Positions 5,554 through 37,835 of a stretch of 64,000 bases of DNA are shown piece after piece. A program made the translations under genes and the position numbers. The notes under the pieces are model-generated. The model had not been told where the DNA came from. It worked only from the letters and a program-made list of their open reading frames with translations, and did no database searches. This DNA is from an uncultured virus (IMG/VR IMGVR_UViG_2881085443_000001) (taxonomy: Duplodnaviria; Heunggongvirae; Uroviricota; Caudoviricetes; Crassvirales), in IMG/VR virus record IMGVR_UViG_2881085443_000001; one strand, given 5' to 3'. Position 1 is the first letter of the stretch. Each line of letters starts with the position of its first letter.

Positions 5554-5727
5554 ATGGAAACCGATTTTTTTATCGTTCCGGCACTCTATGATCAAAGCAC
5601 GTATTTTCTGTTCAGAGATTATGCAATTGAAATAAAATTCACAGTCATAGCAGGAACAATAAGAATAATTGGCAAAGGCTACCTATTACCAGGAGAAGTC
5701 ACATTCATAAAAGAGAATTTTGCATGA
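5554..5727 (+). CDS. small hypothetical protein (57 aa)
   Basis: ATG 5554 to TGA 5725-5727 fills the gap after the SSB gene. Confidence 0.45.
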   Translation: METDFFIVPALYDQSTYFLFRDYAIEIKFTVIAGTIRIIGKGYLLPGEVTFIKENFA

Positions 5728-5769
5728 TATTTTTAGTACAAATAATTTGTATTATCAGTATAACTTTCC

Positions 5770-6161: not shown

Positions 6162-6514
6162 CTTATTTAGAAAAACTTAAAAGTCCTAAATGGCAAAAAA
6201 AAAGGCTTGAAATATTAGAAAGAGATAATTTTTCTTGTAAATGTTGTGGCGATTTTGAAACAAGTCTTCATGTTCATCATACAAAATACTTAGCTAATAC
6301 TGATCCTTGGGAATATGAAAATGATTCTTTAATAACACTTTGCGAAACGTGTCATGCAGAAGTTACTTGGAAGAAAAAAGAGGTGAAAAGAATAATTGAT
6401 GAAGAGTTTATTTATCCAGACTTATTATCTGAATTACATCTTTTATTATTAGAGGTAAGTAAAATGAACCCATATACAATTTTAGAATTAACAAAATCAA
6501 TTACTCATGAGTAA
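6158..6514 (+). CDS. HNH endonuclease
   Basis: RDNFSCKCCG...LHVHH...LITLCETCH. Confidence 0.9.
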   Translation: MTYLEKLKSPKWQKKRLEILERDNFSCKCCGDFETSLHVHHTKYLANTDPWEYENDSLITLCETCHAEVTWKKKEVKRIIDEEFIYPDLLSELHLLLLEVSKMNPYTILELTKSITHE

Positions 6515-25866: not shown

Positions 25867-25938
25867 GGGACTGTAGCTTAGACGGTAAAGCATATACCCG
25901 AAAAGGTATAGACGGCGGTTCGATTCCGCCCTCGCCCG
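25867..25938 (+). ncRNA. tRNA-like RNA with mismatched acceptor stem and 6-bp/6-nt anticodon arm
   Basis: D-arm GCTT/AAGC, TATACC-CGAAAA-GGTATA, 3-nt GAC connector, GGCGG-TTCGATT-CCGCC T-arm. Confidence 0.6.
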
Positions 25939-32825: not shown

Positions 32826-33523
32826 TAATTAGCGGTTTTTTTGTTGTCTTCTTGCATTTCGTCGTTGTTCCCGGCCATTTGTAAATCTTGCTCTTTAAGA
32901 TTGATTCCAAACTTGACACATAACCTGGACACAATATCGTCTTCTTCAGAAGCATGCATGTCAATGTCTTGAAAATCCAACGCATCAGGATTAAAAACTT
33001 CAACATCACTAATCACCACAAAGGTCCATTTAGGCACCAATGGCTTGCGAAGGTAATAAGCGGTTACTTTGTCAGTGATTGCAGCAGGAAGTACCTCGAT
33101 TACATTATTGATTTTTAAACCTATAGGATAATCAATACTGGGTTGCGTATGTTTAAATCGTCGTAGTTGGTTGAATTCTGACATGTTTTTACAAATACTG
33201 ATTTCGCTTAATCCGTTATATAGAATCGATTCCATATACCCCACGTTTGCCGGAATAGTGAATTTACCTTCAGTATAAGTCAGGAGGCCGGACGTTAAGA
33301 AGTGTTCCATCTTAGCTCGGATAATATCAGGAAGGTTTTCTACACCGTTCCCTACTAATCCTCTGTTTTGTCTGTTCAGATATTTGGTAAGATCAAAAGG
33401 ATACTCTTCAAATTTCTCCGTCATTACATTATAAAGCGCTTTGTCAAAATCAGATGGTTTCATGTTTCCACGAACATCACTATTGGCAAGCATCTTAACA
33501 GTTTGATATACTCTATCGATCAT
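32825..33523 (-). CDS. tail ring/adaptor protein
   Basis: 232 aa with YLRKPLVPKW; own promoter element CAAATGTA at 33571. Confidence 0.5.
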   Translation of the reverse strand: MIDRVYQTVKMLANSDVRGNMKPSDFDKALYNVMTEKFEEYPFDLTKYLNRQNRGLVGNGVENLPDIIRAKMEHFLTSGLLTYTEGKFTIPANVGYMESILYNGLSEISICKNMSEFNQLRRFKHTQPSIDYPIGLKINNVIEVLPAAITDKVTAYYLRKPLVPKWTFVVISDVEVFNPDALDFQDIDMHASEEDDIVSRLCVKFGINLKEQDLQMAGNNDEMQEDNKKTAN

Positions 33524-33751
33524 AATAAAACAGATTTTACACTAATAATAACAAAAACTTATACTTAATACAAATGTAATAAATTTTAAGTATCATTAAC
33601 AGACAGTTTTAATACAAATTATTTATATTTTTGGTAAAAATAAATATGTTATGAATTACGACGACGAGCGAGCTAATATGATGCTACAACTTTTTATAAG
33701 GTTTTGCCTGGTAATTGGATTGATAATACTAATCGGAATTCCTTTTTTGAC

Positions 33752-33958
33752 ATGGATCATACCAAGACTGTAAAAGAAGCTATTGACATAAAACACAAAA
33801 GTTCTAATGGAAGTTGCGGCACTTTAATTCCGGATCTGGCAATCAGTACAGGAATACCGTACGAAGAATTGTATCCGGTACTTCGGGTGCTATATGATCA
33901 GAAGTATTTTGTTATGAAACAGGGCATTAATGGTAAAATGATATTTAAGAGGAAATGA
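33752..33958 (+). CDS. small winged-HTH-like protein, first gene of the accessory island
   Basis: ATG 33752; helix-turn-helix-wing pattern ending KQGINGKMIF; start uncertain. Confidence 0.45.
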   Translation: MDHTKTVKEAIDIKHKSSNGSCGTLIPDLAISTGIPYEELYPVLRVLYDQKYFVMKQGINGKMIFKRK

Positions 33959-34194
33959 AAAAAATTATAGCTGTTATAGGTCACGTAGATCACGGAAGAA
34001 CTTGTTTGCAAAGTGCAATTGATAGAGTTCTGGAAAAAGAAAGAGGAATTACTATTGTAAATCCAGAAGAGGCAAACGAAATAAAAGAAAATTATTATTT
34101 CAAAAATGAAGCATTGAAATTAAAATGCTTTAATGAACCCGAACCAATTCAGGAGCAAATATTCGACAAACCAAAATCTAAATTTCATAAATAA
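33955..34194 (+). CDS. 79-aa protein carrying EF-Tu-like G1 and G2 motifs
   Basis: IAVIGHVDHGRT and EKERGITI. Confidence 0.7.
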   Translation: MKKIIAVIGHVDHGRTCLQSAIDRVLEKERGITIVNPEEANEIKENYYFKNEALKLKCFNEPEPIQEQIFDKPKSKFHK

Positions 34195-34210
34195 CGGAAT
34201 CGTAGTATTC

Positions 34211-34303
34211 CTGATAACGGCCGATGATTGTGGCTGTTTGCCACTACAGAAGTTGAATAGGAATAAAATGATTGTGCAAATAGCCACAATCATTTGTTAT
34301 CAG
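34211..34303. repeat. attC-like site 1
   Basis: CTGATAAC...ATGATTGTGGCTGTTTGC / GCAAATAGCCACAATCAT...GTTATCAG. Confidence 0.8.
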
Positions 34304-34338
34304 CATACCACTTAACACTAATTTTAAAAATATAAATT

Positions 34339-34740
34339 ATGGCTTACGATATTTACGGAAATGATTTAAGAAGAGGATATTGCGAAGTTCATCCTCACGT
34401 GCATCAAGAATATCCTTGTGATATTTGTTGCAGAGAAATAGAACAAAGTAATCGTCAAAACGAATATAATAAGCAAATGCAAAAGGATTATTATAAAAGT
34501 ATTGACCCGTCTTTTGATATGGAAACGACACGAATTGTAATTGATTTACTTGTAGTCAGGATTCCAAAAACTGATTTAAATTCAGGTTTATTAGATATTG
34601 ATTTTAACGGACAATATTTGATACAGATAAAAAAAGAAGATGATTCTGATTTGTGGAAAGTAACTAATGCGATGAATGGTTACGGGCATAATTGCTTTGA
34701 GGAATTTAAAAAATCAGAAGTTTCGTTTTTGAGTAACTAA
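34339..34740 (+). CDS. cassette 1 hypothetical protein (Cys/His-rich N-terminus)
   Basis: 133-aa ORF with CEVHPHVHQEYPCDIC. Confidence 0.7.
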   Translation: MAYDIYGNDLRRGYCEVHPHVHQEYPCDICCREIEQSNRQNEYNKQMQKDYYKSIDPSFDMETTRIVIDLLVVRIPKTDLNSGLLDIDFNGQYLIQIKKEDDSDLWKVTNAMNGYGHNCFEEFKKSEVSFLSN

Positions 34741-34766
34741 TTATCGACAACGTGTAGCTTCGGTTG

Positions 34767-34899
34767 CTGATAACGTTCATTATTGTACTTGTAGCGAACT
34801 GACACAAGACAATTTATCGGATTAAAGACTAATAAAAACAAGAATTACAAATCATCAAATTAAGCCGAGTAAAGCTATAAGTACAATATATTGTTATAT
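34767..34899. repeat. attC-like site 2
   Basis: CTGATAAC...TATTGTACTTGTAGC / GCTATAAGTACAATA...GTTATAT. Confidence 0.8.
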
Positions 34900-34943
34900 T
34901 CTCGGCTTTTTTTACTAAATATTAATCAATAAATAAAAATAAA

Positions 34944-35171
34944 ATGACAAAAGAACAAGTAGAAATATACGAATATTGCAAAAAGCACTTAGAAGAATTA
35001 GAGATAGAAAGTAAAAACTCTACTTTTAAAAGGCAAAAATATGGTTGCGGAACAGGAAGCCCAACAATAACATTTAATTTAGAAAGAATTAATCAAGATA
35101 TGTACAGTGAGATTTTTGAAGCTGTAAATAAAGCAAAAAATAGTATACAAAAAATTATCGATGAACTATAA
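34944..35171 (+). CDS. cassette 2 hypothetical protein
   Basis: 75-aa ORF between sites 2 and 3. Confidence 0.7.
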   Translation: MTKEQVEIYEYCKKHLEELEIESKNSTFKRQKYGCGTGSPTITFNLERINQDMYSEIFEAVNKAKNSIQKIIDEL

Positions 35172-35220
35172 CAAAATGACAGCCAGAGTTACTTTCGCCA
35201 GAAAGTTGCTCGAAGCTGGA

Positions 35221-35356
35221 ATATAACGCTTGCCGCTTGTTTTTCGGCTTGAAAAGACATAAAACCATATTTACCTAATCACAAATATTAAAAAGTACAA
35301 GACAATGAAAACAGAAATCACAGATAAAAAAGCTGAAAATCAAGCGGCTGTTAGTG
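35221..35356. repeat. attC-like site 3
   Basis: ATATAAC...GCCGCTTGTTTTTCGGCTT / AAGCTGAAAATCAAGCGGC-T-GTTAGTG. Confidence 0.8.
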
Positions 35357-35613
35357 GCAGTAGATTGATTGGAAAAACAAACGTGATGATTTTAGGGATG
35401 ATTACCGAGCTACAAAAAGGAGGTAAAGTTGGGGTTGTAGGTTGTAAAGACCCGAAAGATATTACTGAACGACTAAAAGCAAAAGGTATCGAAGTAAAAA
35501 GCGAACCAATTATTAGAAAAGGACAAGCACAACCAATATATGACGATGAAGGAATTATTGGTTTTGAAAATAGTGATGATGTACAGACAGGGTTTCTGTT
35601 CTATTGCCACTAA
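35305..35613 (+). CDS. cassette 3 hypothetical protein (starts inside site 3)
   Basis: 102-aa ORF; stop codon is the TAA of the next TAAC core. Confidence 0.65.
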   Translation: MKTEITDKKAENQAAVSGSRLIGKTNVMILGMITELQKGGKVGVVGCKDPKDITERLKAKGIEVKSEPIIRKGQAQPIYDDEGIIGFENSDDVQTGFLFYCH

Positions 35614-35742
35614 CGTCCATCGCTACACTTTCGGCTTGGCGTAAACAAGCGAGGTGTTTCGGATGAAAAACAATAATTACAAATAAAAAACAATATTAAC
35701 CCAATGCCAAATGCAAAAGCTGAAATGTAGCGATTGTTAGTG
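35608..35742. repeat. attC-like site 4
   Basis: CACTAAC...ATCGCTACACTTTCGGCTT / AAGCTGAAATGTAGCGAT-T-GTTAGTG. Confidence 0.8.
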
Positions 35743-35767
35743 GCATACCACGTAAAACTTATAAATT

Positions 35768-35950
35768 ATGGAATATCCAGAACCTATATGCCAAGATTGT
35801 GGAAAACATTGTAATATGTCAGAAGAAATTGATACAGGCGGAGGAAATGAAAAAGGATTTAGCTACATCGAATTGTGGTGTTACTGTGAAAAGTGTGACA
35901 GAGAAACAAATCACCCAATACCTTCTGACAACAATAATTACCCAGAATAG
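35768..35950 (+). CDS. cassette 4 zinc-ribbon protein
   Basis: CQDC...CEKC, 60 aa. Confidence 0.65.
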   Translation: MEYPEPICQDCGKHCNMSEEIDTGGGNEKGFSYIELWCYCEKCDRETNHPIPSDNNNYPE

Positions 35951-35958
35951 GCGGTTGC

Positions 35959-36091
35959 CACTAACGTCCCGCTACTATTAGATGTTGACGAAAAGGACAA
36001 AACCAGTTGTCAAGGATTACTTGACAACTGAAAACACAAAACAATAACAACCAAAGCCTGATACGGCAATAGCTTATAGTAGCTGTTATAT
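35959..36091. repeat. attC-like site 5 with an internal hairpin
   Basis: CACTAAC...GCTACTAT / ATAGTAGC-T-GTTATAT; inner CAGTTGTCAAG/CTTGACAACTG. Confidence 0.75.
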
Positions 36092-36130
36092 TCTCGGCTT
36101 TTTTACATTAACAAATTAAATATAAACAAA

Positions 36131-36349
36131 ATGAAAACACTAAAAGAACAAATTGAAGAAGTAGATTTAATCCAAACAGGTTACGAAGATTTTTATATGG
36201 ATTCTGATAAAATAGTTAAAGTAACAGAAAACTATGTAAATGAAAAAATAGATAAACTAATACAAAAAATAGAAGGTGAAACTTTAGCTCATTATGCTTA
36301 TGAAGCAATTATAGGTATGCTTGAAGATTTAAAATTTCAGCGAGAGTAG
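36131..36349 (+). CDS. cassette 5 acidic hypothetical protein
   Basis: 72-aa ORF. Confidence 0.7.
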   Translation: MKTLKEQIEEVDLIQTGYEDFYMDSDKIVKVTENYVNEKIDKLIQKIEGETLAHYAYEAIIGMLEDLKFQRE

Positions 36350-36377
36350 CTTTGGTTACAAAGTTGCTCAAGCTGGA

Positions 36378-36509
36378 ATATAACGGCGGATGCTACACGA
36401 TGGCTGGGAAAAGCACACACCCAGACTTCGGATAATGACAGATTAAAAAGGTGCAAAACAGACTTTAAATTTAACCCGAAACCCAGCTATTGTGTAGCAT
36501 ATGTTACTG
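36378..36509. repeat. attC-like site 6
   Basis: ATATAAC...ATGCTACACGATGGCTGGG / CCCAGCTATTGTGTAGCAT-AT-GTTACTG. Confidence 0.8.
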
Positions 36510-36533
36510 GCTGTGTTTTTAAAATCAAACGTG

Positions 36534-36938
36534 ATGAACGGACAACAAATTGAAAAATTAGTAAAAGAGCTTATTAAAAAAGAAGTTGATTATAGAAGCT
36601 ATGACGGTAAAATGTCTAAAACATCTTTAATCGAAAGAGGAAGCGAAACCATTTTAGAGCAAATAATTAGACAACATTTATTGGATAATCGTGATGAAAA
36701 ATTAGGTTCATTAGAAGCGAAAGTTTTTGTTTATGAAGAAATGATTGCCAAAAGCACATTTGCTCCAATGCTTGTTGAAAAAGAAGTAGAAACCATAAAA
36801 GAACCTGAACCTTACCGAAGAGAAATGATTTTTACTCAAACGCAAATTGAACACTTACAACACAAAATATTTGAAATTACTGGCGAGGGCGAAGTAATGA
36901 AATTGTTCAATGAAATGTTGGGCGTATCTGTTGGGTAA
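36534..36938 (+). CDS. cassette 6 hypothetical protein
   Basis: ORF open from 36501; internal ATG at 36534 is the likely start. Confidence 0.65.
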   Translation: MNGQQIEKLVKELIKKEVDYRSYDGKMSKTSLIERGSETILEQIIRQHLLDNRDEKLGSLEAKVFVYEEMIAKSTFAPMLVEKEVETIKEPEPYRREMIFTQTQIEHLQHKIFEITGEGEVMKLFNEMLGVSVG

Positions 36939-36944
36939 CATAGC

Positions 36945-37073
36945 CAGTAACGTTCATTATTGTACTTGTATCGAACAAGTAAGCAAAACATCGAGATTCA
37001 AGACAAATCTCGCAGAATTTACAAATAATTAAATCAAGCCTGATATAGCTATAAGTACAATATATTGTTACAG
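36945..37073. repeat. attC-like site 7 (same arms as site 2)
   Basis: CAGTAAC-GTTCATTATTGTACTTGTA...GCTATAAGTACAATATATT-GTTACAG. Confidence 0.8.
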
Positions 37074-37104: not shown

Positions 37105-37398
37105 ATGAAATTAACAGGGAAATGCAAAGAAGATTTTGATAAATGGTTTTATGATAATTATCCATATAAGGAATTTTTATTTTATAGTGATAATTTTAAA
37201 TGCACGTATATTATTGAGTTCTTTGATTCGTATGGGGTTTATTTATGCATAACCCCTGTATTCCCAATAAATAAATACGGATTCTCTTATTCTGTAGATT
37301 TAAAATATTATTATGATATTTTTAACACACGAACCGAAGCAGCAAAGGCAGCTATAATAAAAGCAAATGAAATTTATAATGACAAACATAAATTATGA
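37105..37398 (+). CDS. cassette 7 gene A, hypothetical phage protein
   Basis: 97 aa, MKLTGKCKEDFDKW...TRTEAAKAAIIKANEIYN. Confidence 0.7.
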   Translation: MKLTGKCKEDFDKWFYDNYPYKEFLFYSDNFKCTYIIEFFDSYGVYLCITPVFPINKYGFSYSVDLKYYYDIFNTRTEAAKAAIIKANEIYNDKHKL

Positions 37399-37835
37399 GT
37401 AGAGAAATTAAGTTTAGGGGAATGACAAAAGCTAACAATGTAATGGTTTTTGGAGATTTAATTGTTTGTCCTAATGGAGAGCATAGAATGTTATGGTTTG
37501 AACTAAAAGGAGAATTACCATTAGACTTAGATTACAATTCATTTAATGAAGTTGTACAATCTAGTACTATTAGTCAATTCACAGGGCTACAAGATAAAAA
37601 CGGTTTAGATATTTATGAGGGTGATATTTTACATAAAAAAATAGAACTTGAAGGAGGCATAAAAGGAAATTGGATTGTTGTTTATGGTGAAGGTGGTTTT
37701 GATATTAAAAACATTGATACATCTGCGGAGGTTAAAACAATGTATCTAAAAAAATACTGGAAACATTCTTATGAGGTCATTGGAAATATTTACGAAAATC
37801 CAGAACTATTAGCCGTTCCTACCGCTGTCCTGTAA
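37395..37835 (+). CDS. cassette 7 gene B, YopX family protein
   Basis: REIKFRG, QFTGLQDKNGLDIYEGDI and EVIGNIYENPELL. Confidence 0.9.
   Translation: MSREIKFRGMTKANNVMVFGDLIVCPNGEHRMLWFELKGELPLDLDYNSFNEVVQSSTISQFTGLQDKNGLDIYEGDILHKKIELEGGIKGNWIVVYGEGGFDIKNIDTSAEVKTMYLKKYWKHSYEVIGNIYENPELLAVPTAVL

Follow-up and report, generated by a model that had tools for sequence, protein, structure and literature searches.

Why should a phage encode a protein of only 79 amino acids whose first third resembles elongation factor Tu (EF-Tu) of its host? The question is raised by an open reading frame (ORF) on the plus strand of a 64,000-nucleotide stretch from an uncultured Crassvirales virus (IMG/VR record IMGVR_UViG_2881085443_000001). 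This whole stretch, hereafter the window, corresponds to C12:273358-337357 of a 3.84-Mb bacterial genome in 28 contigs (completeness 99.99%), where the ORF is the second gene of a divergent plus-strand block of small ORFs in a prophage. The original prediction described the product as a miniature EF-Tu mimic with a P-loop and the RGITI motif of switch I, and regarded it as a decoy for defence systems or toxins directed at EF-Tu. Its description of the protein was reproduced exactly from the ORF, including the GHVDHG loop, RGITI and a clean start, the ATG sharing the letters ATGA with the stop codon of the preceding ORF. The answer that we favour, with a probability of about 0.5, is different in function: the protein would be a two-part accessory protein of the early region, with a working basic tail and a replaceable N-terminal cassette, which in this phage would be a domesticated piece of EF-Tu. 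The parts of the gene are as follows.

33955..34194, plus strand: ORF of 79 codons with its stop, a member of a phage mini-protein family (homologues, dN/dS)
33964..34032, plus strand: residues 4-26, the EF-Tu-like cassette, with first strand, P-loop-like GHVDHGRT (33979-34002) and helix (EF-Tu matches)
34033..34059, plus strand: residues 27-35, EKERGITIV, the strand motif of G2 and the end of switch I, and exchange junction of the N-terminal cassette (19-residue gap, mosaic pairs)
34060..34161, plus strand: residues 36-69, the variable middle, of the NDYFKNEALKLKCF type in the window and of other types in other members (alignments A1-A4)
34162..34191, plus strand: residues 70-79, FDKPKSKFHK, the family-defining basic C-terminal tail (columns conserved at 90% or more in 72 sequences)

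When residues 1-34 were compared with the host genome by tblastn, the host tuf gene ranked first (E 1.1e-5), with 22 of 30 residues identical over residues 4-33 and one gap of 19 residues; host genes of the TypA, IF-2 and LepA types scored lower. The G1 loop and helix recur in host EF-Tu, where 19 further residues and then EKERGITIN follow, and the residues missing from the phage protein are those of switch I. The N-terminus is therefore the shortened G1-helix A-G2 stretch that had been predicted. Over residues 4-26 the identity to the host segment is 14 of 23, and a relative, P0044, has 17 of these 23 residues. The best matches among PDB chains found with phmmer were N-termini of EF-Tu (E 7e-4), and the EF-Tu models of NCBIfam (8.3e-5) preceded those of IF-2, SelB, aIF2-gamma and TypA. 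The Pfam model GTP_EFTU (PF00009) scored 18.8 bits against a cut-off of 26.5, with only profile positions 5-36 of 188 matched, and TIGR00485 scored 21.5 bits against a curated cut-off of 522.4; the relative P0046 exceeded the Pfam cut-off, with 31.7 bits on 29 matched residues. A tblastn search with the protein gave only weak matches, to bacterial GTPase and Nudix genes, and the ESM Atlas yielded only sub-threshold look-alikes, apparently N-terminal fragments of GTPases. Judged from these alignments, the EF-Tu likeness of the N-terminus exceeds chance. The protein shares with the EF-Tu G domain the first strand, the GHVDHG loop, a helix with the spacing L..AI..VL and the EKERGITI strand, but the likeness covers only about 30 residues and does not include the 19 residues of switch I, G3-G5 or domains II-III, and the rest of the chain is unrelated.

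The protein cannot be a GTPase, as was also foreseen, since the Lys of the P-loop is replaced by Arg, DxxG and NKxD are absent and the chain consists of 79 residues only. Specifically, the window has GHVDHGRT in place of the Walker A motif GxxxxGK[ST] of G1, RGITI of G2 stands at residues 30-34 without the 19 preceding residues of the effector loop, and neither G3 (DxxG), G4 (NKxD), G5 (SAx) nor a G domain of about 190 residues was found in the 79-residue sequence. We take the EF-Tu copy to be old, and not a recent capture of the host gene, because the phage gene and host tuf agree at 58% of the nucleotides in the segment of 23 codons, the same codon is used at only 6 of the 14 identical residues, and the GC content is 29.5% in the phage gene against 38.7% in host tuf.

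Stand-alone short homologues, which had been proposed as a check, proved to be numerous. Eight homologues of nearly the same length (71-78 aa) share 51-89% identity, and further loci were found in IMG/VR (eight), in metagenomes (four) and in a record titled Flavobacterium sp. MAG (one). A 17-sequence profile compared with 1.84 billion representatives detected 57 of them at E<=1e-3, all of 59-106 aa and with no long GTPase among them. Family-wide counts and conservation given below refer to an alignment of 72 sequences. The window ORF matches the family profile A4 with an E-value of 4.5e-25 and has the traits of the family, being a stand-alone gene of 79 codons that starts with MKKIIAVIG (MKKxxIIG in the family). 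The only columns conserved at 90% or more are P73, K74, S75, K76, H78 and K79. The very C-terminus reads PKSK[FY]H[KR] in 54 of the 72 members, and FDKPKSKFHK followed by the stop codon in the window; the residues before it are usually [YF]DKxGKx[FL], giving the consensus [YF]DKxGKx[FL]xxPKSK[FY]HK, and a few members carry a duplicated or variant basic tail. On this alignment it is the C-terminal tail, which has no relation to EF-Tu, and not an EF-Tu motif that marks the family.

The family is previously undescribed and has no Pfam or NCBIfam model; its members are named 'hypothetical protein' in the sources consulted, save two with automatic GTPase-type names. The strings PKSKYHK, PKSKFHK, KPKSKY and GHVDHGRT gave no literature match, and among the literature matches listed, the titles and the beginnings of abstracts mention no such phage EF-Tu mimic and no EF-Tu-like anti-defence or decoy protein. 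A blastn search of phage isolates with window positions 33000-36000 gave no match. In 400 other genomes of the host's family, 28 matched at E<=1e-3, with at most 25.8 bits; all 29 matches in these genomes belong to larger genes of the ordinary kind, with open frames of 187-527 aa, and there is therefore no other true copy among them. A first profile scan of the contigs of the genome collection detected no member, and when the scan was repeated with A3, a smaller alignment, a chance match and a single true member, the Flavobacterium sp. MAG record, were obtained. Among the PHROGs (v4), phrog_27465, a 59-position profile of unknown function, matches 10 of the 72 members weakly over the P-loop and helix (best E 2.5e-5). 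The match spans only about 24 residues, however, and leaves the mini-protein tail outside; phrog_27465 may represent a related set of short EF-Tu-like phage proteins.

The ratio of nonsynonymous to synonymous substitution rates (dN/dS), a second check that had been suggested, was calculated by the Nei-Gojobori method for four pairs of loci. It was 0.16 for the window and L005 (dS 0.40), 0.33 for L008 and L009, 0.27 for L011 and L014 and 0.20 for L013 and L009, and the tail and the ERGI motif are kept across loci despite synonymous codon changes. Contigs from four runs of four studies contain the ORF alone (33979-34219) between unrelated flanks, with 13-17 differences (about 93-95% identity); none of the differences listed alters residues 9-23 or the PKSKFHK tail, the table of differences being incomplete and some contigs shallow, so that it was not used for rates. 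In close environmental variants most amino-acid changes fall within residues 36-69. These substitution patterns indicate that the gene is selectively maintained, under purifying selection. Neither outcome that would have contradicted the original prediction, a lack of short homologues or neutral decay, was therefore observed. In a contig of run X6 position 33655 is joined to 33980 with 17 other letters between, so that the preceding 84-aa ORF is skipped, and the relative there has a start of its own, MKKIMII, in place of that of the window.

The N-terminal parts of the members begin with a short hydrophobic strand that has Gly as its last residue; a loop and helix, which vary, lead to a second strand, often ERGI.IV. 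Assigned by simple motifs, these N-terminal parts fall into the following classes.

EF-Tu-like, [GE]H[VI]xHG: 16 of 72 members
GADIPMGAQ-like: 9 of 72
GxGxEGLEIA: 5 of 72
other GxxxxG[KRQ][ST]: 8 of 72
helix-only start, no loop: 6 of 72
none of these motifs: 28 of 72

Searched member by member, Pfam gave GTP_EFTU in 11 of 72 and, in others, scattered weak matches to NAD/FAD-binding or other P-loop families. When the cassettes of all 72 members were compared with the host genome, convincing matches were obtained for the EF-Tu-like ones only. Within the EF-Tu-like class the position of the P-loop Lys is occupied by Lys in 3 of the 16 members, Arg in 9 and another residue in 4. The motif [ED]RGI.I occurs in 21 of the 72 members, 8 of them in this class and 13 among the 56 outside it, and the three most EF-Tu-like P-loops (P0044, P0046 and P0056) are found without RGITI; the G1-like and G2-like motifs are thus separable. 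The H-[VI]-x-H of the loop is kept in 16/16 EF-Tu-like members, and a Cys stands four residues past the second His in 11 of these. The His pair and the Cys might form a metal site gained after domestication.

Comparison of individual members revealed that these cassettes are exchanged. P0002 and P0007 are identical in the N-terminal half (34/34) and only about 22% identical in the middle, P0007 and P0010 are 47% identical in the N-terminal half and identical in the middle (29/29), and L009 and P0015 are 84% identical in the N-terminal half and 26% in the middle. Two cassettes and two middles are thus found in every one of their four pairings. The EF-Tu-like and the GADIPMGAQ-like cassettes are each joined to middles of the window, TNNHEIKD and PFEPEP types, from which it follows that the cassette between the flanks MKKxxIIG and ERGI.IV has been exchanged among phages. 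As read from these alignments, front ends are swapped between otherwise identical proteins, and the two halves of the gene differ in history.

These comparisons establish membership of the family, purifying selection, homology to EF-Tu, loss of the GTPase determinants and modular exchange of the cassette. Going beyond them, we propose that the constant C-terminal basic hairpin and tail would be the working end of the protein and would dock, probably, on a conserved partner of negative charge, which could be nucleic acid or else a protein, of host or phage, with an acidic pocket. The N-terminal strand, Gly-rich loop, helix and strand would be a replaceable unit; in the window phage it would have been made from the first strand, P-loop, helix A and RGITI strand of EF-Tu by excision of the 19-residue switch-I loop, and would serve as a compact unit of folding, oligomerisation or specificity. 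We do not think that the cassette works as a nucleotide switch, or that resemblance to EF-Tu is obligatory for it. The residues that it keeps from EF-Tu are mainly those of the loop and of the hydrophobic face of the helix, in the spacing i, i+3, i+4, i+7, i+8 (L, A, I, V, L); since the residues between these have changed, the pattern suggests retention of a fold rather than copying of a surface. The protein would belong to a known kind, small phage accessory proteins built from pieces of host proteins, here with an exchangeable EF-Tu-derived cassette. If the proposal is correct, nature would here offer a clear example of domestication, in which a phage has built about 30 residues of a protein essential to the host into a small accessory protein; within a gene of 80 codons, the EF-Tu piece would be an allele that changes places with unrelated cassettes. 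Proteins of the P0007 and P0010 types would then be ready-made natural swap pairs for the function of the cassette.

Several results weigh against this proposal. The sequence pattern fits a Gly-rich loop at the N-terminus of a helix between strands, as in P-loop and Rossmann proteins, but the AlphaFold2 models, with a mean predicted local distance difference test score (pLDDT) of 56.2 and a predicted template modelling score (pTM) of 0.20 from 14 sequences, and 64.9 and 0.28 from 72, are of low confidence and contain helices at residues 14-29 and 37-46 only. The expected strands were not formed, so the strand-loop-helix-strand picture comes from the sequence pattern and nothing else. The tail had no match in host proteins and is covered by no Pfam, NCBIfam or PHROG model. 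When the 45 members lacking the H[VI]xHG loop were aligned with the first 100 residues of host EF-Tu, hhalign gave a probability of 0.75% and aligned only the ERGI stretch; with no detectable EF-Tu relation in these members, the family may have started from an EF-Tu fragment that has mostly decayed or may have gained the EF-Tu-like cassette later. Conservation of the His pair in the whole EF-Tu-like class cuts against a pure scaffold role, and, taken with the identity of the P0002 and P0007 cassettes across such divergent middles, could reflect strong selection on EF-Tu-like side chains, though the identity of these two cassettes may also stem from recent recombination. On the origin of the family, weak hints favour an older and longer EF-Tu fragment: L013/P0016 has a spacing of 33 residues, against 37, before a perfect EKERGITIN, and a distant member, L006 (2335-2565), in which GH is followed by GYCNAQ...EKERGIVI, aligns without a gap with the switch-I stretch of the host protein, including the GYC tripeptide (11/24, E 0.078). 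The L006 pattern looks, weakly, as if a different 19-residue piece had been deleted.

Other explanations of the gene were weighed against the same data. An ORF that arose by chance, or one left from a captured host GTPase gene and now decaying neutrally, would agree with a short protein without G3-G5, a Pfam score under the cut-off and a location in a variable region of small ORFs. This explanation was rejected, and we give it next to no credence, as the four dN/dS values, the 57 representatives of similar length, the invariant tail unrelated to EF-Tu and the distance of the nucleotide sequence from host tuf all contradict it. We also considered a minimal phosphate-binding protein, in which the Gly-rich loop would bind the backbone of a nucleic acid, a nucleotide or an immune signal derived from one, assisted by the basic tail, and which could act as a small sponge or nucleic-acid binder. 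The best PDB matches of the family profile, all weak, mix Rossmann units, a phosphate-loop design and EF-Tu fragments (TrkA, 0.0067; CoA-disulfide reductase, 0.0095; the designed 'phosphate-loop protein' 6c2u, 0.013; EF-Tu N-terminal fragments, 0.014), and both the division of the Pfam matches between GTP_EFTU and NAD/FAD-binding or other P-loop families and the neighbouring genes of DNA and nucleotide metabolism point the same way. Kinship of the P-loop and Rossmann strand-loop-helix-strand elements is discussed in eLife 2020;9:e64415; like the ancestral fragment treated there and the designed mini-proteins of the 6c2u type, the family would present a strand, Gly-rich loop, helix and strand outside a full NTPase domain, with Walker-A-like or GxGxxG-like loops at the same place. 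Unlike the designs, its members are natural phage proteins known here from sequence, the match to 6c2u is weak and many members have no Gly-rich loop. The loop is absent from 6 of the 72 members and fits neither motif in 28, the Walker Lys is not conserved, the PDB and Pfam matches are all below significance or curated cut-offs, and there is no confident structure model, so that phosphate binding as the function appears unlikely. The family would nevertheless be relevant, as a natural strand/P-loop/helix/strand mini-protein, to ideas on minimal phosphate-binding units. A further possibility is that the loop and helix between the conserved strands are the surface seen by a host sensor, or one that contacts a variable target, and that phages exchange alleles for this reason, the EF-Tu-like allele being a self-like disguise. 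Discrete cassette alleles do occur in several backgrounds, the EF-Tu-like and GADIPMGAQ-like ones with at least three types of middle, and the conserved flanks could act as exchange junctions. However, such a sensor or target is hypothetical, none of the other cassettes has a counterpart among the proteins of the host genome (best non-EF-Tu match E>0.01), and phage genes are commonly mosaic where no arms race is involved; we consider this quite improbable.

The decoy function of the original prediction fared less well than its anatomy, homology and selection. In the form considered here, the cassette would display the face of EF-Tu made up of P-loop and RGITI, by which EF-Tu-directed defences or toxins would be lured away or competitively inhibited, with a Lit-type metalloprotease or the caspase-like protease of type IV Thoeris as proposed targets. 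Cleavage of EF-Tu by Lit falls inside RGITI, and the Gol peptide, like Avs7, binds EF-Tu domains II-III. According to one preprint (bioRxiv 10.1101/2024.10.24.620036), EF-Tu of E. coli is cleaved by the type IV Thoeris protease behind R45 and R59, in EEKAR; another (bioRxiv 10.64898/2026.01.04.697583) names Lit and type IV Thoeris as EF-Tu-cleaving defences and describes binding of Avs7 to domains II-III. The phage protein does carry the local cleavage-site sequence (EKER/GITI), identical to that of host EF-Tu, and the cassette is strongly conserved in its class, as in P0002 and P0007. The site is not conserved across the family, however, being found in the 21 of 72 members given above and in only half of the EF-Tu-like class, from the three most EF-Tu-like loops of which it is absent; of two relatives, P0005 (67% identical) has Ile in place of the Arg of RGITI, and P0006 (62% identical) no longer has the motif. 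Neither the Lys/Arg position of the P-loop nor the Arg of RGITI is conserved even within the EF-Tu-like class. Relatives identical in middle and tail bear an unrelated, non-EF-Tu cassette, the EF-Tu-like cassette is dispensable for the family, and the invariant feature of the family, the tail, is unrelated to EF-Tu. The Thoeris protease is described as promiscuous and Arg-specific, so that a site decoy would have to compete with the whole proteome, and domains II-III, which Avs7 binds, are missing from the mini-protein. Functional EF-Tu mimicry is accordingly doubtful, and on these sequence comparisons the decoy reading in particular is weakened to the point of being rather improbable. Equally slim chances are given to a modular mimicry platform, in which the basic tail would deliver or anchor the protein and the swappable cassette would copy the surface of a host protein. 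The EF-Tu P-loop/RGITI face would then block or divert Lit-type proteases, caspase-like proteases or other enzymes by which EF-Tu is cut or modified at this site, or else disguise the protein as self, and other cassettes would be aimed at other targets. The mini-protein offers a concrete candidate for trial with the defences, now increasing in number, that make use of EF-Tu or cleave it. The Lit family PF10463 had no match in the host genome, and the same search was also negative in all 14 control genomes. TadIV-1, the known phage inhibitor of type IV Thoeris, was considered and set aside; according to PMC13243611 it is an unrelated 92-aa signal sponge of Straboviridae.

The two-part accessory protein that we favour was assigned to the early region on the basis of its surroundings. 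The neighbours of the mini-protein gene vary by locus and are those of early, DNA-metabolism accessory regions: DNA methyltransferases lie directly downstream in L005 and L014, and other neighbours are dCTP deaminase, thymidylate synthase, integrase, the single-stranded DNA-binding protein SSB, Erf, an exonuclease and phrog_98 proteins. No translation genes were found near it in the loci examined. In the window, virion structural genes (phrog_14478, 13977 and 14543) lie immediately upstream on the minus strand. The upstream 84-aa ORF that overlaps the start is not conserved as a partner, being absent beside relatives of the mini-protein gene. The original prediction placed the gene immediately before a cassette array, which is true in a loose sense, the gene being second in a block whose small ORFs are separated by repeated intergenic elements (34771-37070). 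It also saw a theme with tRNA mimics and a transfer-messenger RNA (tmRNA). Such a theme exists within the window phage only; ARAGORN, which reported no tRNA or tmRNA in the 64-kb window either and thus misses the window's own Rfam matches, found no tRNA or tmRNA gene around the mini-protein gene in any of 13 related loci. The elements concerned are:

33704..33958, plus strand: upstream 84-aa ORF (phrog_14854, function unknown, E 1.8e-10)
34202..34311, plus strand: strong hairpin directly past the ORF stop, with inner arms 34224-34241 and 34276-34293 (inverted repeat I12; dG -42.8 kcal/mol, z -5.9)
34771-34799 and 36948-36976: intergenic repeat, 97% identity
34845-34896 and 37019-37070: intergenic repeat, 87% identity
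34892-34912 and 36084-36104: intergenic repeat, 100% identity
25117-25227, plus strand: match to the Rfam tRNA model, 46.3 bits, with a 46-nt insertion in the anticodon-arm region
25867-25938, plus strand: match to the Rfam tRNA model, 40 bits
25945-26193, plus strand: match to permuted tmRNA (RF04321), 46.3 bits, just below the gathering score of 47

The hairpin at 34202-34311 is likely to be a terminator or boundary element. Its core is nearly identical in an unrelated IMG/VR locus, L008 (~5640-5760), where it lies upstream of the homologue, and L005 (~6238-6360) has a different hairpin at the same place; the element may be mobile. In three of the eight loci examined a phrog_98 protein of unknown function is encoded within a few kb of the mini-protein gene, at 37395-37835 in the window, 6738-7121 in L008 and 1941-2315 in L014.

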